Virus record (IMG/VR): IMGVR_UViG_3300048839_001000
Coordinates: 1 to 56,456 of that record
Reading direction: 5' to 3' (one strand)
Length of the DNA: 56,456 nucleotides
From: a virus
Lineage: Duplodnaviria; Caudoviricetes
The translations under genes and the position numbers were made by a program. Of the stretch, positions 3,074-14,042 are shown piece by piece (position 1 is the stretch's first letter; each line of letters begins with the position of its first letter). The notes below the pieces were generated by a model, which saw only the letters and a program-made list of their open reading frames with translations, searched no databases and was not told the DNA's origin.

Positions 3074-3100
3074 GCGTATCTCCTCGCTACTCTGCGGTCC

Positions 3101-3129
3101 ATTATACCACAAAATGGACCGGTGAACAT
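3101..3129 (-). promoter_or_regulatory. putative promoter ATGTTC-N17-TATAAT
   Basis: Perfect -10 box upstream of the helicase; same architecture as four other sites in the window. Confidence 0.65.
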
Positions 3130-3199
3130 CTTGAAACCTGAACTAAATTTCATTTCCGTCTCGCTCCACGTCGCCATCGTTGAATCGGCGGCGCAGAGC

Positions 3200-3231
3200 G
3201 AGACGGCGTGCGGTTGCCCGCACGTCGTCTC
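3200..3231 (-). terminator. GC-rich hairpin ending the small-protein operon
   Basis: GAGACGACGTGCGG-GCAA-CCGCACGCCGTCTC shortly after the stop at 3247; no classical U-tract. Confidence 0.5.
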
Positions 3232-3246
3232 TTTGGATTGACGGTG

Positions 3247-3642
3247 TTACTTGGCGTCGGCGCTGATGATGCCTTCGAGCTCGGCCTGGTACTTCGCCAG
3301 GCGCTCTTTGAGCTTCTGGAACGCGAGCTTCTTGCGCTCGATGCTCTTCTCGGAAGCCATCGGCTTGGTCGCGGCGGCTGTCCAGAACTCAGCGTCCCAC
3401 GCAGACTTCGCGGCGCAGAACTGTTTCCAGCTCTCGATCACCTTGCCCGCCTTGTCCTTGAGCTGGAGGACCTTCGCCTCCTTGAAGTTCACGCGGCGAT
3501 AGAACTTCAACGGCTCCTTCGCCTGGAGCTCCTTGATCTGGGCGAGGCGCTTCGCCTTCTGCGCTTCCCGCGCGGGGTCCTTCGCCTTCGGTGCCTTCGG
3601 TGCCTTCACTGCCTTCGATTCCTTCTCGTGTTCCTTCGCCAT
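3247..3642 (-). CDS. Lys/Ala-rich basic protein, paralogue of 5970..6410
   Basis: KAPKAPKAK stretch; C-terminal SEKSIERK...LAKYQAELE matches 5970..6410; GAGAGGAG RBS. Confidence 0.8.
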   Translation of the reverse strand: MAKEHEKESKAVKAPKAPKAKDPAREAQKAKRLAQIKELQAKEPLKFYRRVNFKEAKVLQLKDKAGKVIESWKQFCAAKSAWDAEFWTAAATKPMASEKSIERKKLAFQKLKERLAKYQAELEGIISADAK

Positions 3643-3743
3643 GTGTCTGACTCCTCTCGTCGCTGGCCGCGCGGTCATGGCTGATGCCGGCGGTCGGCTA
3701 TGTAAAGAGTCGCGCGGCATCTACCACGCGCACTCGGTGCTGC

Positions 3744-3802
3744 GACCGGGCTTGGAACCGGTCTGCCGCATTGCACCCGCGCGTACGCGGGTGTCCTCTG
3801 CG
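3744..3802 (-). ncRNA. twister ribozyme, type-P5-like permutation, copy 1
   Basis: CGCAGAGGA-[CACCCGCG UACG CGCGGGUG]-C^AAUGCGGCA-GACCGG UUCCAAGC CCGGUC; C rather than U at -1. Confidence 0.78.
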
Positions 3803-4522
3803 TTAGAGCTGAATGCCATCACGCTCGATCATCAAATCGCCGGCGCGGATCGCGTCTCCTGTTTCCTCGAGTGACCGCGCGCGGGCGTTTGCGCGGAGTG
3901 TCTCGCACGCCTTTTTCTCATCGTCGAAATTGAACTCCCACTCGTAATCGCTTATGCTGAGTTGCACCAAGTCGAGTACCGCGTACATGCGGTGTGGACG
4001 TCTGTTATCCTCATGATCCGATACCACCGCGTAGTCATCGCGAACCACGCCGATCAATTCACCACCACCCGCCATATCGAATACTGCGCGGCATGCATAG
4101 CCACAGACGTACGTCGGCATCAACGCAAAGCCGCACCCTGTCGTGACTCGCGACTCGATTGGATGCCGCACCATCGCTTCAGCAGCGTTGCGCACGAGCA
4201 GATCCTCGGCAGCAATCATTGGTCCGACCACGTCCATCGTCTCCTCCGCATAGAGCATCACGTCCTGTACTGCGCTAAGTTCCTGGCGGATCTGTTCGTA
4301 CGCGTGGAGCACTTTGCGTGCCTGCTCAATCTCATGCAGATGGATGGTGCCCTCACCCTTCACAAATGCCTCTGCGTGGCCGACGACAAGCACCACACTC
4401 GCCTTGCCATTCACCACCTCGACGGCAGTGACACCCTCGAACTCGTCGATGTCGTGAGCTGACGGTCCGTCTTCCGGACTCGAATGCTCCTCCATCCACG
4501 AGTGCTTCACCCAGTGAATCAT
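3803..4522 (-). CDS. hypothetical protein
   Basis: Start re-assigned to MIHWVK behind AGAGAGGAG; stop abuts ribozyme copy 1. Confidence 0.75.
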   Translation of the reverse strand: MIHWVKHSWMEEHSSPEDGPSAHDIDEFEGVTAVEVVNGKASVVLVVGHAEAFVKGEGTIHLHEIEQARKVLHAYEQIRQELSAVQDVMLYAEETMDVVGPMIAAEDLLVRNAAEAMVRHPIESRVTTGCGFALMPTYVCGYACRAVFDMAGGGELIGVVRDDYAVVSDHEDNRRPHRMYAVLDLVQLSISDYEWEFNFDDEKKACETLRANARARSLEETGDAIRAGDLMIERDGIQL

Positions 4523-4565
4523 CTCGTTTCTCCTCTCTAATCTGGCGGCCTCACCTTGAGCCATC

Positions 4566-4623
4566 GACCGGGCTTGGAACCGGTCCGCCGCATTACTGGC
4601 GCGTGATGCGCCAGTCCTCTGCG
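4566..4623 (-). ncRNA. twister ribozyme, type-P5-like permutation, copy 2
   Basis: CGCAGAGGA-[CUGGCGC AUCAC GCGCCAG]-U^AAUGCGGCG-GACCGG UUCCAAGC CCGGUC. Confidence 0.87.
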
Positions 4624-4625
4624 CT

Positions 4626-5024
4626 TCAGCCGGCGACTTTGACCAGCAAGCCGCTTTTCACTTCGTACATCTGGCCATGCCCGACACCGAGCAGACCACG
4701 CCCGTTAAGAATCCAGCATCCATCGCACATCTTGGCCCACGGACCGAACACCGTCGCTGCATCGTAGAGATGCGCTCCCTCTTCGGCGATCGTGGCGCCG
4801 CAGAAACTGCATTTCGGTTCGCCGAGAAAGCGTTTCGCCTTCTGTGGTTTGGGCTTCCCAGTCCCCATCTCCATGAACAGATTCGTGGAAGTGGTGGTCC
4901 CAACGAAGCCGCCGACTAACGCATCGTAGGCGCGCTCGGTGGCCTCACGCTCTGCACCGCATGTGCAGACTGGCGCGCCAGTCATTCGTCTGGCGCAGTC
5001 AAACTTGTGGGTGATTCTCGCCAT
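4626..5024 (-). CDS. small Cys-containing (CxxC) hypothetical protein
   Basis: CSFC and CDGC pairs; RBS GTAGAGAGGAG. Confidence 0.75.
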   Translation of the reverse strand: MARITHKFDCARRMTGAPVCTCGAEREATERAYDALVGGFVGTTTSTNLFMEMGTGKPKPQKAKRFLGEPKCSFCGATIAEEGAHLYDAATVFGPWAKMCDGCWILNGRGLLGVGHGQMYEVKSGLLVKVAG

Positions 5025-5062
5025 CGTTTCGTCTCCTCTCTACTCTCCAGCGGTCTCCATCT

Positions 5063-5121
5063 GCTCGGGCTTCGGACCGAGCCGCCGCATTACTGGCGCC
5101 TCTCGGCGCCAGCCGTCTGCG
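5063..5121 (-). ncRNA. twister ribozyme, type-P5-like permutation, copy 3
   Basis: CGCAGACGG-[CUGGCGCC GAGA GGCGCCAG]-U^AAUGCGGCG-GCUCGG UCCGAAGC CCGAGC; T1 covaries to CGG/CCG. Confidence 0.87.
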
Positions 5122-5125
5122 TTCG

Positions 5126-5464
5126 CTACTTCGAATTGCGCTTGGCCTTCTTGCTGCGGTTAGCGAGCTCGCGGCGCGCGATGGCGTAGCACTTGGCGAC
5201 GACTTCGCGGCTGGTACCGACGCCGTGGTGCCGGATCGTCACCTTGATGGCGTGGATCAGGACGTTGGCGACGTGCAGATTCTTGCGGTCGATGGCGCGC
5301 ACCTGTCGCGCCAGCTTCTTCGCGTTGGCGGCGGCCAGCTTCTTCGCTTTACGCTCCGCCGTCACCTTCGCTCGCGCGGCGGACTTCGCCTCACGGATCC
5401 GCTCGCGCACCGCCTCGAGCTCCTTGGCCAACTCGACGATCTGCTTCTCATTCTCCGTAAACAT
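5126..5464 (-). CDS. basic coiled-coil hypothetical protein
   Basis: 112 aa, K/R/A-rich, AGAGAGGAG RBS. Confidence 0.75.
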   Translation of the reverse strand: MFTENEKQIVELAKELEAVRERIREAKSAARAKVTAERKAKKLAAANAKKLARQVRAIDRKNLHVANVLIHAIKVTIRHHGVGTSREVVAKCYAIARRELANRSKKAKRNSK

Positions 5465-5546
5465 TGTACCGCTCCTCTCTTATCTTCAGCACGAAGGCCA
5501 GCGGGATGGAACACCCACCCCGTTGGCCGTGCTGTGGTGTGCGTTC

Positions 5547-5876
5547 TTAGAGCTCGCTCGCGGCGAGCTTCGCCATCTCCGCCTGGACCCGCTCCATCTC
5601 GGCGAGGAGCTCCGCCTTGCGGCTCTCCTTGTCGATCTTCGTCGCCATTGGAATCACCTGCTCGCGGAGCTCCGTCTCCTCGATCTTCGCCTTCGCGAGA
5701 TTCGCCTTCGTCCCCTCAAGGTGCGCCGCGATCTCCGCCGCCTTTCCCTCCCAGAACACCACCATGTGCTCGAGGTGCTTTCGCGTCTCGACCACCGCGC
5801 CGAGCCGCTCGCGAGCGGCGTTCTCGCGGCGGTTCGCCGCGTAACTCGGGAGTTCGCTGAGTTTCCGTCCGATCAT
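5547..5876 (-). CDS. coiled-coil hypothetical protein
   Basis: Start re-assigned to MIGRKL behind a purine-rich RBS; the longer ORF call runs through ribozyme copy 4. Confidence 0.75.
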   Translation of the reverse strand: MIGRKLSELPSYAANRRENAARERLGAVVETRKHLEHMVVFWEGKAAEIAAHLEGTKANLAKAKIEETELREQVIPMATKIDKESRKAELLAEMERVQAEMAKLAASEL

Positions 5877-5902
5877 GGTCCTCTCCTCTCTCTTCTTCGC
5901 GC

Positions 5903-5965
5903 GGCCGGGCTTTGGACCGGCCTGCCGCATTACTGGCAGCGATGCTCCGCCGCCAGCCATCTGCG
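5903..5965 (-). ncRNA. twister ribozyme, type-P5-like permutation, copy 4
   Basis: CGCAGAUGG-[CUGGCGGCG GAGCAU CGCUGCCAG]-U^AAUGCGGCA-GGCCGG UCCAAAGC CCGGCC; T1 covaries to UGG/CCA. Confidence 0.87.
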
Positions 5966-5969
5966 TTCG

Positions 5970-6410
5970 CTACTTCGAGTCGGCGGCGACGAGAGCCTCC
6001 AGCTCCGCCTGCATCTTCGCCAGTTTCTCCTTAGCGGCGACGAATTTCGCCTGTTTGCGGGCGATCGACTTTTCGCTGATCGCCGGTTTCTTCGCCTTGG
6101 CGGTCCAGTACTCGGCGTAGGCGGCGGCCTTGAACAAGCAGAACGCTGCCCAGGTCGAAACGGCGGAGTCGCCGACGAGCGCGGTGTCGCGAAGGGCAAC
6201 CGCCGCCTTGTACTCGTTGAAGTTGAGGATGCAGGGGACGCGGAGCGGGTCGTTCTTCTTCACCTCGGCGAGCTTGGCGCTCCGCTTCTGGCGGTGAGCT
6301 ACGCGGCGAGCTGTACGTTCCGCCTGCTTCTTCGCCTCGAGCGCCTCGGCGCTGAGCGGCACCTTGTTGGCGCTCGTGGTGGTGGCGGTGTTGGCGATCT
6401 GCTTCGACAT
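5970..6410 (-). CDS. Lys/Ala-rich basic protein, paralogue of 3247..3642
   Basis: Shared KxPL, WxxFCxxKxAxxAExWTA and SEKSIxRK...LAKxQAELE blocks; first gene after the promoter at ~6500. Confidence 0.8.
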   Translation of the reverse strand: MSKQIANTATTTSANKVPLSAEALEAKKQAERTARRVAHRQKRSAKLAEVKKNDPLRVPCILNFNEYKAAVALRDTALVGDSAVSTWAAFCLFKAAAYAEYWTAKAKKPAISEKSIARKQAKFVAAKEKLAKMQAELEALVAADSK

Positions 6411-6491
6411 GGTAAGTCTCCTCTCTACTCTCTTCTCTTCGGTCTGGCGGAGTCGGGCAAGTTGCCCGCCGTTCCCGTCATTCCTGAAGGT

Positions 6492-6519
6492 ATCTTAACC
6501 CGTTTTCGTGGGAGTACAT
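6492..6519 (-). promoter_or_regulatory. putative promoter ATGTAC-N16-TAAGAT for the ribozyme operon
   Basis: Matches the genome's TGTAC...TAxxAT motif, inside an AT-rich intergenic region. Confidence 0.5.
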
Positions 6520-6767
6520 TTCTTTTTGCCACTTTTCTGTCTCCGTAAGTCCTTATGTACCAAGGACTTATATCATTGTCCCAAACTATTTAATGTAACC
6601 TTGGCGGGTCCACATTCAACTTCCTCCGTATTCTGTTTTCATGTGGCGATACGCCGTTACATCTTGTTTCTACCTTCAAAAGGCTCCCACGTTCATGCAT
6701 CTTTGCCTACTATAGTCCACTATTTTACACCTTTGCGAGGCAATCCATCAACTTGATCAACCTTGTT

Positions 6768-7211
6768 CTATGTGGTTTCATCCTCCATTCCAAGCTCACG
6801 TTGCATCTTCTCCAGCTCGCGTCGCATCTGCTCGACGGCGGAGAGTTTCTCCTTTAGTACACGTTTTTTCAACCTGCGTTCGCGTAGCTCTCTGCCGTGC
6901 TCATTTGGTTGACGACTTTCGCCGGCGCGATTCTCTCCTCGTCGTTCCCACCGTAGATTCTTTGCAGAGCAGTCACTCGGATCTCCGTTCATGTGGCGAG
7001 CTTCGTGACCAACTGGCTTTGGTCCGACGAAAGCCTCCAACACAAGTCGAGCCACGGTGGTCGCGTGCCACCTACCTTTGTCATTGCGCATGTTCACGAC
7101 GCGGTACCCAGTTTCCAGCGAGTTCACCTTCACCGATTTGCCGTGGTGAAACACTGCGCCGCTTTCATCCACCTCGTAACCATCGTGTTCTTTAATCGCT
7201 ACTCTTGTCAC
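6768..7211 (-). CDS. HNH homing-endonuclease-like protein
   Basis: VARLVLEAFVGPKP...RHMNGDPSDCSAKNLRW (HNH_3-like); GTG start overlaps the polA stop. Confidence 0.8.
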   Translation of the reverse strand: MTRVAIKEHDGYEVDESGAVFHHGKSVKVNSLETGYRVVNMRNDKGRWHATTVARLVLEAFVGPKPVGHEARHMNGDPSDCSAKNLRWERRGENRAGESRQPNEHGRELRERRLKKRVLKEKLSAVEQMRRELEKMQRELGMEDETT

Positions 7212-11192: not shown

Positions 11193-14042
11193 TTAAAGCT
11201 CCTCCTCTGCGTGCTTGGGTGCCGCCGGTACCTTCAACTCGTTACCATCCCTCAGGTCCTTCAGCAATTTCAAGAATGCCGGCGTCTTCACATAGGCATT
11301 CCTGTATCGTCGCAGCGCTCGTTTTCGAACGAGCAACCCGAGCAAGGCACGAGCTTCATCGAATGACTGTCCAGCCCAGTCGACTAGATCAGTGTGCATG
11401 ATGAGTGATGCATTCAACATCGCATTGACTACGTCCACTGCGTACGGTAAACTCGTGATGGCCTTACTGATAATCGGTTCATCGTCCATGGTGGATTCAC
11501 CGAGAAGCAGCTTCGAGTACTCTAAATATCCGAAACTAGCGGAGTCATAAATCTGTTGAATCATCTCTGACACCACTCTAACGTGACACTCGCGTACTAC
11601 CAACGTGTTTCCATCATCGGTGGAGAACAGACGCGCAGCGAGCGAAGCAGAAAGTCGTGCGAGCTTCAAACGTTGGTCCGCTGATTCCACGATTGGTACC
11701 GACGATGAGTACTTGCGTCCCATTGCCGTCGCTATTTCTAAGATAGCATCGACAGCGTTCTCTTCAAATCGCACTTGATTCGGTTTGCGTGACCACGCCC
11801 AAAGCACTAACTCACGGCAGGCATCCGAGGTGTACTTATGAGCGACAGTTGGCAGTCTATCGATGCGTGCATTGATGACTTCTTCTGCCACTTCTTTGGA
11901 GCCGAGACAAATGGCGACATCGAATCTTCGCACATCTTCAAGAGAGCCGATCAGCTCCCTCACTGCCTCGATTCCATAGTTGTAGGTGTCCAGTTTTCTG
12001 CCTGAACGCGAATTGCTAATCCAGATGAGTCGACATCTGCACGTAGTCTTGGCCTTCTCGATCTTGCTGATCTCGATGATACCTGACGAGCGTGCATCCG
12101 TCATCTTGGCGATCATGTCGGTGCCGAGACCCTTCGCTTCTTCGAGCGCGACGAGTCTTCGATCGTTGAGCGTAATGACACCCCATGAAATGAACCATCG
12201 CCTGCTGGTCTCTTGTAGACCTCCGAGTAGGCCGGCGATCGACGATCCCTTGCAGTCCACCTTCTCACCCAATCTGTAGTGCTCCATCAAGGCGGTAAGT
12301 GCAGCGGACTTTCCTTGAGATGAATCGCCGACCACCAACGCCTCGACCCATCCTTTGTAGACCTTACCTTGGAATGGGACGTAGAGAACACTGTGGTACA
12401 CCAAGTCGTAGACGAGATGAAGATGCGGACGTTGCCGAATCAGCGTCACGTTGGACTCGAAGTCGGTGTAGATGTCCTTCAATTTGTCTCGCACCGCAGC
12501 CTCGGTGTTCTCCGACTGAAACATCCTCAATCGATCATGCATCTCCGGTGTCATGTCAAACAGTTCTAACGAATCGACTTGAGCCTGCGCCCTATTGATC
12601 AGTAATGTAGCGTACTGCGTGTTCGGCTCCGGCAGACACCGTGCTTCTACCTCGTATGAAGTATTGGTCTCGATGCCGTGCCCAACGTAGAAGGCTCTGC
12701 GAACAACATGCTCTCCACTGTTCTCCGCTATCTTTAACTGCGGGATCAAACGCACCTCTTCAACGTTGTACATCTCTATTGGAACGAAGACGCACGAACG
12801 ACAGATCTGTGGTATGCGAGCCGCCTTCTTCAACGCGATCGGTTGACGCTCCAATTTGATATTCACCAGCTCAAGAAGCGCTGGGTCGGTGTCCTGCAAA
12901 GTGACCTCAGGAAGTTCCTGCTCTGCTTTGAACACGGAACAGAAAGCACAGTACTCCTGATCGCGTAGACATCGCACTTGAAATTTCTGTGGAACGGTGT
13001 ACGGCGCAGTGTCCTTAGCGGATACCACGCAGGAAATCTTGACCATCTTCGAGTAGTACTTTGCATGCGAAGACTCGCCGAGAGACACGTCGTACACCTT
13101 CGCGTCACGAGTCACCTCGTCAGCGAGCGGGGCCGGCTTCCATTCAGGTGCATCGACAAGTACCTGCTGTAGTTCTTCCTTTGTTCGCTTCGCTTTCACG
13201 ATGAAGTCAGTCACGTCACCATGCGGGTACTCTTCGATAGCCAGTGGAAGCAGAATGCTCTTCACCATCTGTGCATGCGGTGCTACGCTATGGAGTACTG
13301 CGAACGACCCGTCTCTGCCCGGTTTATCGATGTCATACATCACCATCACGATCTTGCCGGCGAATTGTTCACCCCATTTGCGAAGCCATTTACGAGCTCC
13401 GCCAGTGGCAGACACCGCGTGAAACCCAAGTTGATTCAACAGCAGAGCCTTCATCTCACCTTCGACAATAATGATGACGTCGTTTGAGAGCTCGCTGACT
13501 GGGTAGAGGCGCAGTTTATTGTGGCCCGGTACTCCAATCACCTTCTTCTCTTGATCAGTGGATGACCACTGCCGGATGTTCAGCACCTTGCCATCGCCGG
13601 CATACACCGGCATGGACACTCTATTCCCAGTCCATCCAAGTCTGTACTTGACGATGGTATCGTGAGTGAGTCCTTTGCGCTCCAGCAAAGTCTGCTGCGC
13701 CTGTTTGTTCTGCAGAAGTGCCTGATGCCACTTCTCCACCAATGCTACATCTATCTCGCCCTCTTCAGTCTCATCATCCCTATCGTTGAGACCGTCGATG
13801 ATGGAGAGGACCGCTCCACGAGAACTCTTTGTCCAGCCAGCAATGTAGTCAGTAGCGTCGCCGCTCTTTCCGCATGCGTGGCAAAAGTACTTTCCACTCT
13901 CCAAATTGATCTCACAACTTGGATGCGCATCGTCATTCTGATGTTGATCTGGGTGCGGGCATCTCACCTTCGCCTTAGCACCATCAGCAAATTCAGAAAT
14001 CAGTTCGACGTCGAAATGTCGAAGTAGTTCTGACACTCTCAT
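11193..14042 (-). CDS. primase (Zn finger plus TOPRIM) fused to an MCM-type AAA+ helicase
   Basis: CP..H/CHAC zinc finger, VEGEMKA and YDID TOPRIM; C4 zinc region, GDSSQGKS, GSSIAGL, LEE, RRFD. Confidence 0.85.
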   Translation of the reverse strand: MRVSELLRHFDVELISEFADGAKAKVRCPHPDQHQNDDAHPSCEINLESGKYFCHACGKSGDATDYIAGWTKSSRGAVLSIIDGLNDRDDETEEGEIDVALVEKWHQALLQNKQAQQTLLERKGLTHDTIVKYRLGWTGNRVSMPVYAGDGKVLNIRQWSSTDQEKKVIGVPGHNKLRLYPVSELSNDVIIIVEGEMKALLLNQLGFHAVSATGGARKWLRKWGEQFAGKIVMVMYDIDKPGRDGSFAVLHSVAPHAQMVKSILLPLAIEEYPHGDVTDFIVKAKRTKEELQQVLVDAPEWKPAPLADEVTRDAKVYDVSLGESSHAKYYSKMVKISCVVSAKDTAPYTVPQKFQVRCLRDQEYCAFCSVFKAEQELPEVTLQDTDPALLELVNIKLERQPIALKKAARIPQICRSCVFVPIEMYNVEEVRLIPQLKIAENSGEHVVRRAFYVGHGIETNTSYEVEARCLPEPNTQYATLLINRAQAQVDSLELFDMTPEMHDRLRMFQSENTEAAVRDKLKDIYTDFESNVTLIRQRPHLHLVYDLVYHSVLYVPFQGKVYKGWVEALVVGDSSQGKSAALTALMEHYRLGEKVDCKGSSIAGLLGGLQETSRRWFISWGVITLNDRRLVALEEAKGLGTDMIAKMTDARSSGIIEISKIEKAKTTCRCRLIWISNSRSGRKLDTYNYGIEAVRELIGSLEDVRRFDVAICLGSKEVAEEVINARIDRLPTVAHKYTSDACRELVLWAWSRKPNQVRFEENAVDAILEIATAMGRKYSSSVPIVESADQRLKLARLSASLAARLFSTDDGNTLVVRECHVRVVSEMIQQIYDSASFGYLEYSKLLLGESTMDDEPIISKAITSLPYAVDVVNAMLNASLIMHTDLVDWAGQSFDEARALLGLLVRKRALRRYRNAYVKTPAFLKLLKDLRDGNELKVPAAPKHAEEEL

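Follow-up and report, generated by a model that had tools for sequence, protein, structure and literature searches.

Type-P5 twister ribozymes at the stop codons of a phage operon and how they may divide its RNA

The locus described here raises the question of whether a phage operon can divide its own polycistronic RNA and, if so, what the division would achieve. The whole of IMG/VR virus record IMGVR_UViG_3300048839_001000 (56,456 bases, linear; CheckV completeness 71) was analysed and is referred to as the window. On its (-) strand, a block of six open reading frames (ORFs), genes A to F, lies between an HNH endonuclease gene (7244-6768; the PolA/HNH side of the block) and a SNF2 helicase gene. 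The block has the appearance of a single transcription unit, about 3.4 kb long, and we infer that its six small genes are co-transcribed. Four short elements sit within it, each just behind a stop codon, and an original prediction made from the sequence alone took them for twister ribozymes. The present analysis confirms that the four elements are type-P5 twisters with an intact core and both pseudoknots. The wider reading, to which we assign a probability of roughly 0.72, is that they are functional ribozymes that cut the sense-strand RNA of this accessory operon and thereby uncouple neighbouring cistrons.

The identity of the elements rests on covariance-model searches. The window was scanned with Rfam at the gathering threshold, which is 37.6 bits for RF02684 Twister-P5, a model of 58 positions. 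Each of the four copies, numbered 1 to 4 in the order of genes A to F, matches model positions 1-58 of 58 at 59.1-61.5 bits, with E values from 2e-10 to 9e-10, on the (-) strand, which is the sense of the ORFs; of the twister-clan models, P5 gave the best retained match for all four. Since 80 phage loci picked only by their PolA gene (1,128,067 bases) did not yield a single match to the same model, chance is ruled out as the source of the twister matches. No other ribozyme class reached threshold in the window, and the Rfam search of its 56 kb at E<=1 returned one further row only, RsmY at 21 bits (cut-off 57). A second model, R1, was built from the window's four copies; with filters off, it scores them at 76.9-82.2 bits over positions 3100-6800, where the next candidate reaches 11.7 bits. 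The intervals originally drawn for the four elements are recovered in this way, and their 3' ends (5903, 5063, 4566 and 3744) coincide with the ends of a P4 helix of 6 bp in the window copies, 3 bp longer than the 3-bp P4 of the Rfam consensus.

The predicted structures agree with the family. Minimum free energy (MFE) folds contain P2, P1 and P4 in 4/4 copies (z -3.4 to -4.5), and P1 is a closed hairpin in all four, as expected of the P5-type circular permutation and as implied by the earlier description of a twister core opened at P5. P1 and P4 vary in sequence among the copies, yet always pair, in the alignment as in the folds. The pseudoknots T1 and T2 connect L1/J with loop L4, and all three T1 pairs (3/3) form in every copy; the triplet differs between copies and matches its own loop, and the covariation proposed for these triplets is found as written. 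The consensus core is present in all four alignments, the departures being confined to the T1 positions, the base 5' of the cut (N-1, a C in copy 4) and one A/G position, where, next to the T2 'GC' on its 3' side, copies 2 and 3 carry G in place of the consensus A of Rfam.

Covariation extends these observations to relatives. A model made from the four window copies retrieved 89 copies, drawn from 36 sources, and these were aligned. Standard pairs occupy 96.1% of the pair cells of this alignment, as against 69.6% in column shuffles (0/500 reach the observed value) and 31-42% when the 3' partners are slid by 1-3 columns; the alignment was fitted to the nested helices of the model and so favours them, though not T1 and T2. 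P2 is paired in 97.7% of cases, P1 in 92.9-95.5% and P4 in 96.3-100%, and double changes occur in 16/18 pairs of these helices, or 21/23 when T1 and T2 are included. The two pseudoknots stand outside the search model. T1 is paired in 97.3%; its three pairs have undergone double changes in 17, 12 and 33 instances, and each of them occurs as GC, CG, AU and UA. T2 is paired in 90.9%.

The departures from consensus might suggest mere look-alikes without activity, or repeats in decay that have lost the ability to cleave, the C at N-1 in copy 4 and the G after the T2 'GC' in copies 2 and 3 being the features that speak for this view. Both variants are common among relatives: of the 89 copies, 69 carry U just before the cut, 13 carry C, and G and A account for 3 each, while the G after the T2 'GC' was present in 4/12 alignment rows inspected. 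A review calls the N-1 uridine 'less conserved' and ascribes almost no active-site contacts to it (PMC5408937), so that a C is tolerable there; judged by its sequence, copy 4 carries an ordinary variant. With scores about 22 bits over the cut-off and helices and both pseudoknots intact in 4/4 copies, loss of activity is hardly credible as an explanation of the elements.

The architecture recurs in other phages. Viral contigs were scanned for the conserved 3' half of the element, which gave 40 stretches; the Rfam scan covered these and four longer regions (44 loci) and returned 112 Twister-P5 matches. When the 23 matches in loci duplicated by L045-L048 were dropped and the window's four added, 93 matches were left, 82 of them unique. 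No hammerhead, pistol, hatchet or twister-sister ribozyme reached threshold in the 44 loci, where the only other Rfam matches were tRNA, tmRNA and one DUF3800-VIII RNA. The fetched parts of the 38 pattern-found contigs include 11 with at least 3 copies and 13 with at least 2; these are lower bounds, and three of the contigs are near-identical in appearance. Ten other records searched whole with RF02684 hold 8, 6, 8, 2, 0, 7, 7, 5, 4 and 4 copies above the cut-off, always on one strand within a record; most of the ten were chosen for already showing several matches, and the counts are examples rather than a measure of prevalence. Array-bearing records have 2-8 same-strand copies, and the operon of the window is a clean example of a recurrent architecture, in which arrays reach up to 8 copies per phage.

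One of these phages is in culture. The Tunturiibacter phage Tunturi_4 (PP885687.1, L049) has four unannotated Twister-P5 copies of 48-62 bits between genes of its early/replication region. Three of them begin 0, 0 and 4 nucleotides (nt) after annotated coding-sequence ends, and the fourth 25 nt after one. Neither 'ribozyme' nor 'twister' occurs in the main text of the Tunturi_4 paper (PMC11924767). The host is Tunturiibacter empetritectus, an acidobacterium, and the cultured phage-host pair offers a system in which the function of the arrays is testable in a real infection.

Placement relative to the genes is regular. In the window, the ribozymes start 4 (gene A, TAG), 4 (C, TAG), 2 (D, TGA) and 0 nt (E, TAA) after the stop codon, within the 0-4 nt that had been claimed, and the distances from the Rfam 3' end to the next start preceded by a Shine-Dalgarno (SD) motif are 28, 40, 45 and 103 nt for copies 1-4. 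Of the 82 unique Rfam matches, 78 have a frame of at least 50 codons that ends no more than 200 nt upstream on the same strand; in 59/78 its stop ends between -5 and +5 nt from the first base of the ribozyme (median 1), and a median of 28 nt separates the ribozyme from the next start preceded by an SD. Among the 80 copies of the 89-copy set for which both flanks were identified, 61 lie within 5 nt of a stop. Uniform placement, in which a ribozyme may stand anywhere in the available spacer once 14 nt are reserved for the SD and its spacing, predicts 36.0 +/- 3.2. At least one flush copy is present in 28/33 loci that have an upstream frame. The placement is therefore non-random, with a recurrent order of stop codon, twister-P5, about 28 nt with an SD, and next start.

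One way to understand the flush placement is that the 9-13 nt from stop to P1 would be about the footprint of a terminating ribosome. A flush position would leave nearly no naked single strand on the upstream product, and a ribosome bound at the stop could transiently block the folding of P2 and T1. In L034, L038 and L045 (for example L045:1962-2018), the stop codon TAG overlaps the first two bases of the ribozyme (TAGCAGAGGG); the first P2 pair is altered to fit, and several L038 copies have all of P2 exchanged (GGU/ACC).

A quite different account treats the repeats mainly as cassette boundaries, whose approximately 30 conserved nt would serve as patches of homology for the shuffling of accessory genes, with catalysis secondary. 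The genes next to the ribozymes are indeed highly variable: of 85 twister-flanking proteins, no two match a common PHROG or Pfam family, and the named singletons are an ArdC-like anti-restriction protein, a methyltransferase, a PAPS reductase, helicases and HNH. In the window, copies 1 and 2 share 12 identical nt upstream, spanning the last codons of genes A and C, and genes A and F, which open and close the operon, are Lys/Ala-rich paralogues (41% identity over 127 aa, E 1e-27). The GC content of the operon (4001-6000) is 0.62, and 0.58-0.65 for genes A-F, as compared with 0.52-0.55 for the neighbouring replication genes, which hints at a separate ancestry of the block. If the repeats were patches for recombination, compensation in P1, P4 and T1 and conservation of the catalytic core would not be required, and the invariable sense orientation and the set spacing from stop and start codons point to a role at the RNA level. 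The two roles are not exclusive; as the main function of the repeats, boundary marking is decidedly improbable.

If the four twisters act in the operon RNA as we propose, each would fold in the nascent transcript (P2, P1, P4, T1, T2) and cut between N-1 and the conserved A, with no need of a host RNase. The junctions proposed in the original prediction are reproduced by a count on the sequence (Table 1). The predicted products are gene A, B+C (840 nt), D (497 nt), E (822 nt) and gene F. The expectation of gene-sized products holds for A, D, E and F as single-gene units and fails for the 840-nt fragment, which is bicistronic because no twister lies between genes B and C (5876-5126). An upstream product would end in a GC-rich hairpin bearing a 2',3'-cyclic phosphate, 33-41 nt past the first stop-codon base, since in the P5 permutation the closed P1 hairpin lies 5' of the cut; in all of the predicted upstream products this terminal hairpin has a folding energy of -14.6 to -19.9 kcal/mol and an overhang of 0-1 nt. 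A downstream product would start with a 5'-OH and seven or so bases, followed by the P4 hairpin, a short spacer and a strong SD. The likely effect would be to uncouple the stability and translation of adjacent cistrons.

Two known systems, one natural and one engineered, resemble this scheme. The early polycistronic mRNA of phage T7 is cut between cistrons by RNase III, which keeps a 3' hairpin and leaves 5'-phosphate and 3'-OH ends. In both T7 and the window, a phage operon RNA is, or would be, cut between cistrons into discrete mRNAs that end in hairpins; T7 relies on a host enzyme, whereas in the window the cut would be made by the RNA and would give 5'-OH and 2',3'-cyclic phosphate ends. 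In the engineered pRAP system, an intercistronic twister turns a polycistronic mRNA into monocistrons in E. coli, as seen by Northern blot, and the upstream cistrons are expressed only when a stem-loop directly precedes the cut (PMC9872166). The order of gene, stem-loop, twister cut, ribosome-binding site (RBS) and gene is the same as in the window, with the difference that pRAP needs an added stem-loop, its twister cutting at its own 5' end, while in the natural P5 form P1 is that stem-loop. The P5 permutation thus places on the 3' end of the upstream message a stable hairpin of the kind that synthetic biologists had to supply themselves (PMC9872166). By analogy, the operon of the window would be a host-independent counterpart of T7 RNase III processing and a natural counterpart of engineered twister operons.

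The same predicted ends could have the opposite consequence. The ribozymes would then be active in negative or temporal control, their unprotected 5'-OH ends speeding the decay of particular cistrons and making expression brief or graded along the operon. In Bacillus, the glmS product is degraded by RNase J1. The effect of a 5'-OH end depends on the host, and the predicted post-cleavage leader of gene F hides its SD. This idea is set back by the strong hairpin, with nearly no overhang, at the end of all upstream products; in pRAP, such a terminal hairpin rescues expression (PMC9872166). Moreover, all six genes carry GAGAGGAG, the strongest SD of the phage, which is not suggestive of silencing. 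We consider control by accelerated decay unlikely.

Several points weigh against the proposal that the twisters divide the operon RNA and uncouple its cistrons. The promoter with which the transcript was supposed to begin, originally placed at about 6.5 kb, comes down to a single match in the consensus scan (Table 1), a weak one, and the number of promoter-like sites found in that scan equals the shuffle expectation. The hairpin at the other end of the unit lacks a U-tail. With a different hairpin in place of a twister between B and C, a rule of one cut per gene fails. The idea that cleavage exposes the RBS is unevenly supported, because the predicted post-cleavage leader of gene F pairs with its SD and the MFE fold of the copy-2 leader disrupts P4. 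Adjacency to the stop may in part reflect tight packing of phage genes together with the need for free RNA ahead of an SD, and the favour that the covariation alignment lends to the nested helices has been mentioned above. Lastly, the fate of 5'-OH RNA is host-dependent, and the closest cultured phages are less than 37% identical in terminase and PolA; since this fate varies by host, cleavage in vivo, should it occur, could stabilise or destabilise the products.

The T1 pseudoknot distinguishes two kinds of array. All copies have one T1 in common (GGG/CCC or GGA/UCC) in L034, L038, L045, L046 and L047; T1 is copy-specific and self-matching in the window and in L006, L012, L029 and L039. Within arrays of at least 3 copies, 58/61 copies form 3/3 T1 pairs with themselves. 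Loop and triplet are fully compatible between consecutive copies in 34/51 pairs, and most pairs have a compatible P2; in the window, consecutive copies are compatible at 2/3, 1/3 and 3/3 positions. A diversified T1 may insulate neighbouring ribozymes from mis-pairing, while a uniform T1 leaves room for the re-association of halves in trans. Together with the position flush to the stop, such per-copy T1 'addresses' lead to testable predictions on translation, folding and insulation.

Re-association would be a step towards circular mRNAs. An excised fragment would carry complementary twister halves at its ends, the 3' half from copy i and the 5' half from copy i+1. Pairing in P2 and T1 could bring these ends together, and the ribozyme reaction run in reverse, or a host ligase of the RtcB type, could then seal them. 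The result would be an exonuclease-resistant circular message with an internal SD, comparable to the engineered 'Tornado' design but of natural origin. Of the window's fragments, that of gene E alone is fully T1-compatible (copy 3 loop UCC with copy 4 triplet GGA); in the other copies, the diversified T1 might just as well serve to insulate against such cross-pairing. RtcB, RNA ligase and polynucleotide kinase families are absent from the matches of the 55 other window ORFs, which include a DNA-ligase-like match and nucleotide-kinase matches only. For hammerhead arrays, circular or spliced products were looked for and none seen (PMC3088659). Circle formation by the arrays is very doubtful.

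The twister class is said to go back to Roth et al. 2014, and Felletti, Bieber and Hartig 2017 reportedly placed bacterial twisters in 3' UTRs and polycistronic mRNAs, proposed a role in polycistronic processing and noted that structure left after cleavage affects expression. The elements of the window are like those bacterial twisters in lying downstream of coding regions with polycistronic processing as the proposed role. In structure, they do not differ from the type-P5 twister of RF02684, which has the same P1/P2/P4 helices, T1/T2 pseudoknots, core and N-1/A+1 junction by P1 (PMC5408937); their P4 of 6 bp and the diversification of T1 between copies of one genome are the particulars of the window. 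A review of 2019 records that twister processing of bacterial polycistronic mRNAs has been proposed and notes the association with phages, adding that the function of bacterial and phage self-cleaving ribozymes 'remains to be deciphered' (PMC6765202).

A precedent is the tandem hammerhead array of prophages. In Perreault et al. 2011, multiple hammerheads flank single genes or short blocks in prophages, processing into operon- or gene-length mRNAs is proposed, native polycistronic fragments of about 2 kb are cleaved in vitro and one triple array cleaves in E. coli (PMC3088659). There, as in the window, same-sense ribozymes surround variable genes, mostly of unknown or anti-restriction type (PMC3088659). 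The layout of the window fits tandem punctuation, with four copies in 2.2 kb that split A / B+C / D / E / F. It differs from the hammerhead arrays in consisting of twister-P5 only, in arrays of up to 8 copies flush with stops, a rule of which the passages of Perreault et al. give no instance (PMC3088659). The claim that no phage operon of this layout had been described was therefore overstated, in view of the prophage hammerhead arrays, the twister proposal in the review (PMC6765202) and the other phage records. A literature search whose scope did not extend to the primary twister papers and their supplements found no twister arrays in phage operons, no stop-adjacency rule and no Tunturi_4 case; those supplements, or those of Perreault et al., could already list twister arrays in environmental contigs. 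The arrangement is already of a described sort, to which a quantified placement rule and a culturable test system are added here.

The genes of the operon and the features around it are listed in Table 1. Genes A, B, C, E and F match nothing in PHROG or Pfam, and gene D matches only PHROGs of unknown function. A protein atlas search gave nothing usable for gene A (best score 0.78) or gene E. The SD motif GAGAGGAG precedes all six ORFs, and 6 of its 16 sites on the (-) strand are in the operon. As an operon-specific cassette signal it was ruled out, being the general strong SD of the phage.

Table 1. Positions of the ribozymes, genes and other features of the operon in the window, and of the ribozymes in Tunturi_4
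Feature	Position	Strand or record	Basis and remarks
Promoter-like site TTGATG-18-TAAAAT, candidate unit start	6722-6751	(-)	Consensus scan, 9/12 matches; weak
Gene A, 146 aa, Lys/Ala-rich, no family, paralogue of F	5970-6410	(-)	ORF + GAGAGGAG
Twister-P5 copy 1, T1 UGG/CCA, predicted cut U5932/A5931	5903-5965	(-)	Rfam 5965-5905, 61.5 bits
Gene B, 109 aa, no family	5547-5876	(-)	ORF; starts 28 nt past ribozyme, behind GAGAGGAG
B-C spacer, long imperfect hairpin, no U-tail	5465-5546	(-)	Fold -35.4 kcal/mol, z -3.2
Gene C, 112 aa, basic, no family	5126-5464	(-)	ORF
Twister-P5 copy 2, T1 CGG/CCG, predicted cut U5092/A5091	5063-5121	(-)	Rfam 5121-5065, 60.6 bits
Gene D, 132 aa, Cys-rich	4626-5024	(-)	phrog_23287 1.6e-11, phrog_29767 2.4e-11; both of unknown function
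Twister-P5 copy 3, T1 GGA/UCC, predicted cut U4595/A4594	4566-4623	(-)	Rfam 4623-4568, 59.1 bits
Gene E, 239 aa, acidic, no family	3803-4522	(-)	ORF
Twister-P5 copy 4, T1 GGA/UCC, C at N-1, predicted cut C3773/A3772	3744-3802	(-)	Rfam 3802-3746, 61.0 bits
Gene F, 131 aa, paralogue of A, no family	3247-3642	(-)	ORF; 103-nt leader
14-bp GC-rich hairpin without U-tail, 15 nt past gene F stop	3200-3231	(-)	Sequence; palindrome listed by scan on + strand
Extended -10 TGnTATAAT, ahead of SNF2 helicase gene	3101-3109	(-)	Sequence
Tunturi_4 Twister-P5 copy	63149-63092	PP885687.1	RF02684 search
Tunturi_4 Twister-P5 copy	62226-62165	PP885687.1	RF02684 search
Tunturi_4 Twister-P5 copy	59991-59934	PP885687.1	RF02684 search
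Tunturi_4 Twister-P5 copy	58409-58349	PP885687.1	RF02684 search

Structured RNA is also present in the spacers and leaders. The hairpin between B and C could be an RNase III-type site or a stabiliser. The spacer begins with GAACGCACA, which resembles GAACGCAGA ahead of copies 1 and 2; a decayed fifth twister was rejected there, the spacer scoring 4.3 bits with model R1 (filters off) and giving no Rfam match at E<=1. After copy 4, the leader of gene F (3642-3745, (-)) has a z of -3.0, and its predicted fold pairs the GAGAGGAG SD with an upstream GACUCUUU; such a fold may exert translational control over the last gene. Beyond gene F, the terminal hairpin is probably the 3' end or a stabiliser of the unit. 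At the other side of the block, an AT-richer spacer of 357 nt, which holds the promoter-like site, separates the HNH gene from gene A. The extended -10 (3109-3101) overlaps the listed TTG start of the SNF2 helicase ORF, and the true start of the helicase is therefore probably farther downstream.

The phage itself is a tailed one, with genes for the large terminase subunit, portal, head-morphogenesis protein, primase/helicase and family-A DNA polymerase (PolA), all on the (-) strand, which also encodes thymidylate synthase, the HNH endonuclease and the SNF2 helicase. Its terminase and PolA have best cultured-phage matches of less than 37% identity, and relatives of PolA in IMG/VR are at most 29% identical. 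A blastn search of window positions 3200-6800 against 50,697 phage records gave no match, and searches for relatives of the locus with gene E and with gene A found none. The host was also sought by way of the ribozyme subtype, which is uninformative, the pattern having been found in 16 stretches of very different phyla. Among the 55 other (-) ORFs are a dCMP deaminase, thymidylate synthase, nucleotide kinases and a nucleoside 2-deoxyribosyltransferase, as well as several glycosyltransferases, a sulfotransferase-like protein and a C5 methylase. Such a complement of genes is suggestive of modified DNA.

Two minor observations concern the related loci. A weak twister-P5 match (38 bits) at L026:12687-12763 lies about 500 nt upstream of a tmRNA (13276-13663), and the near-identical L028 has the same arrangement. 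At L032:12018-12157, a tRNA is directly followed by the DUF3800-VIII RNA.

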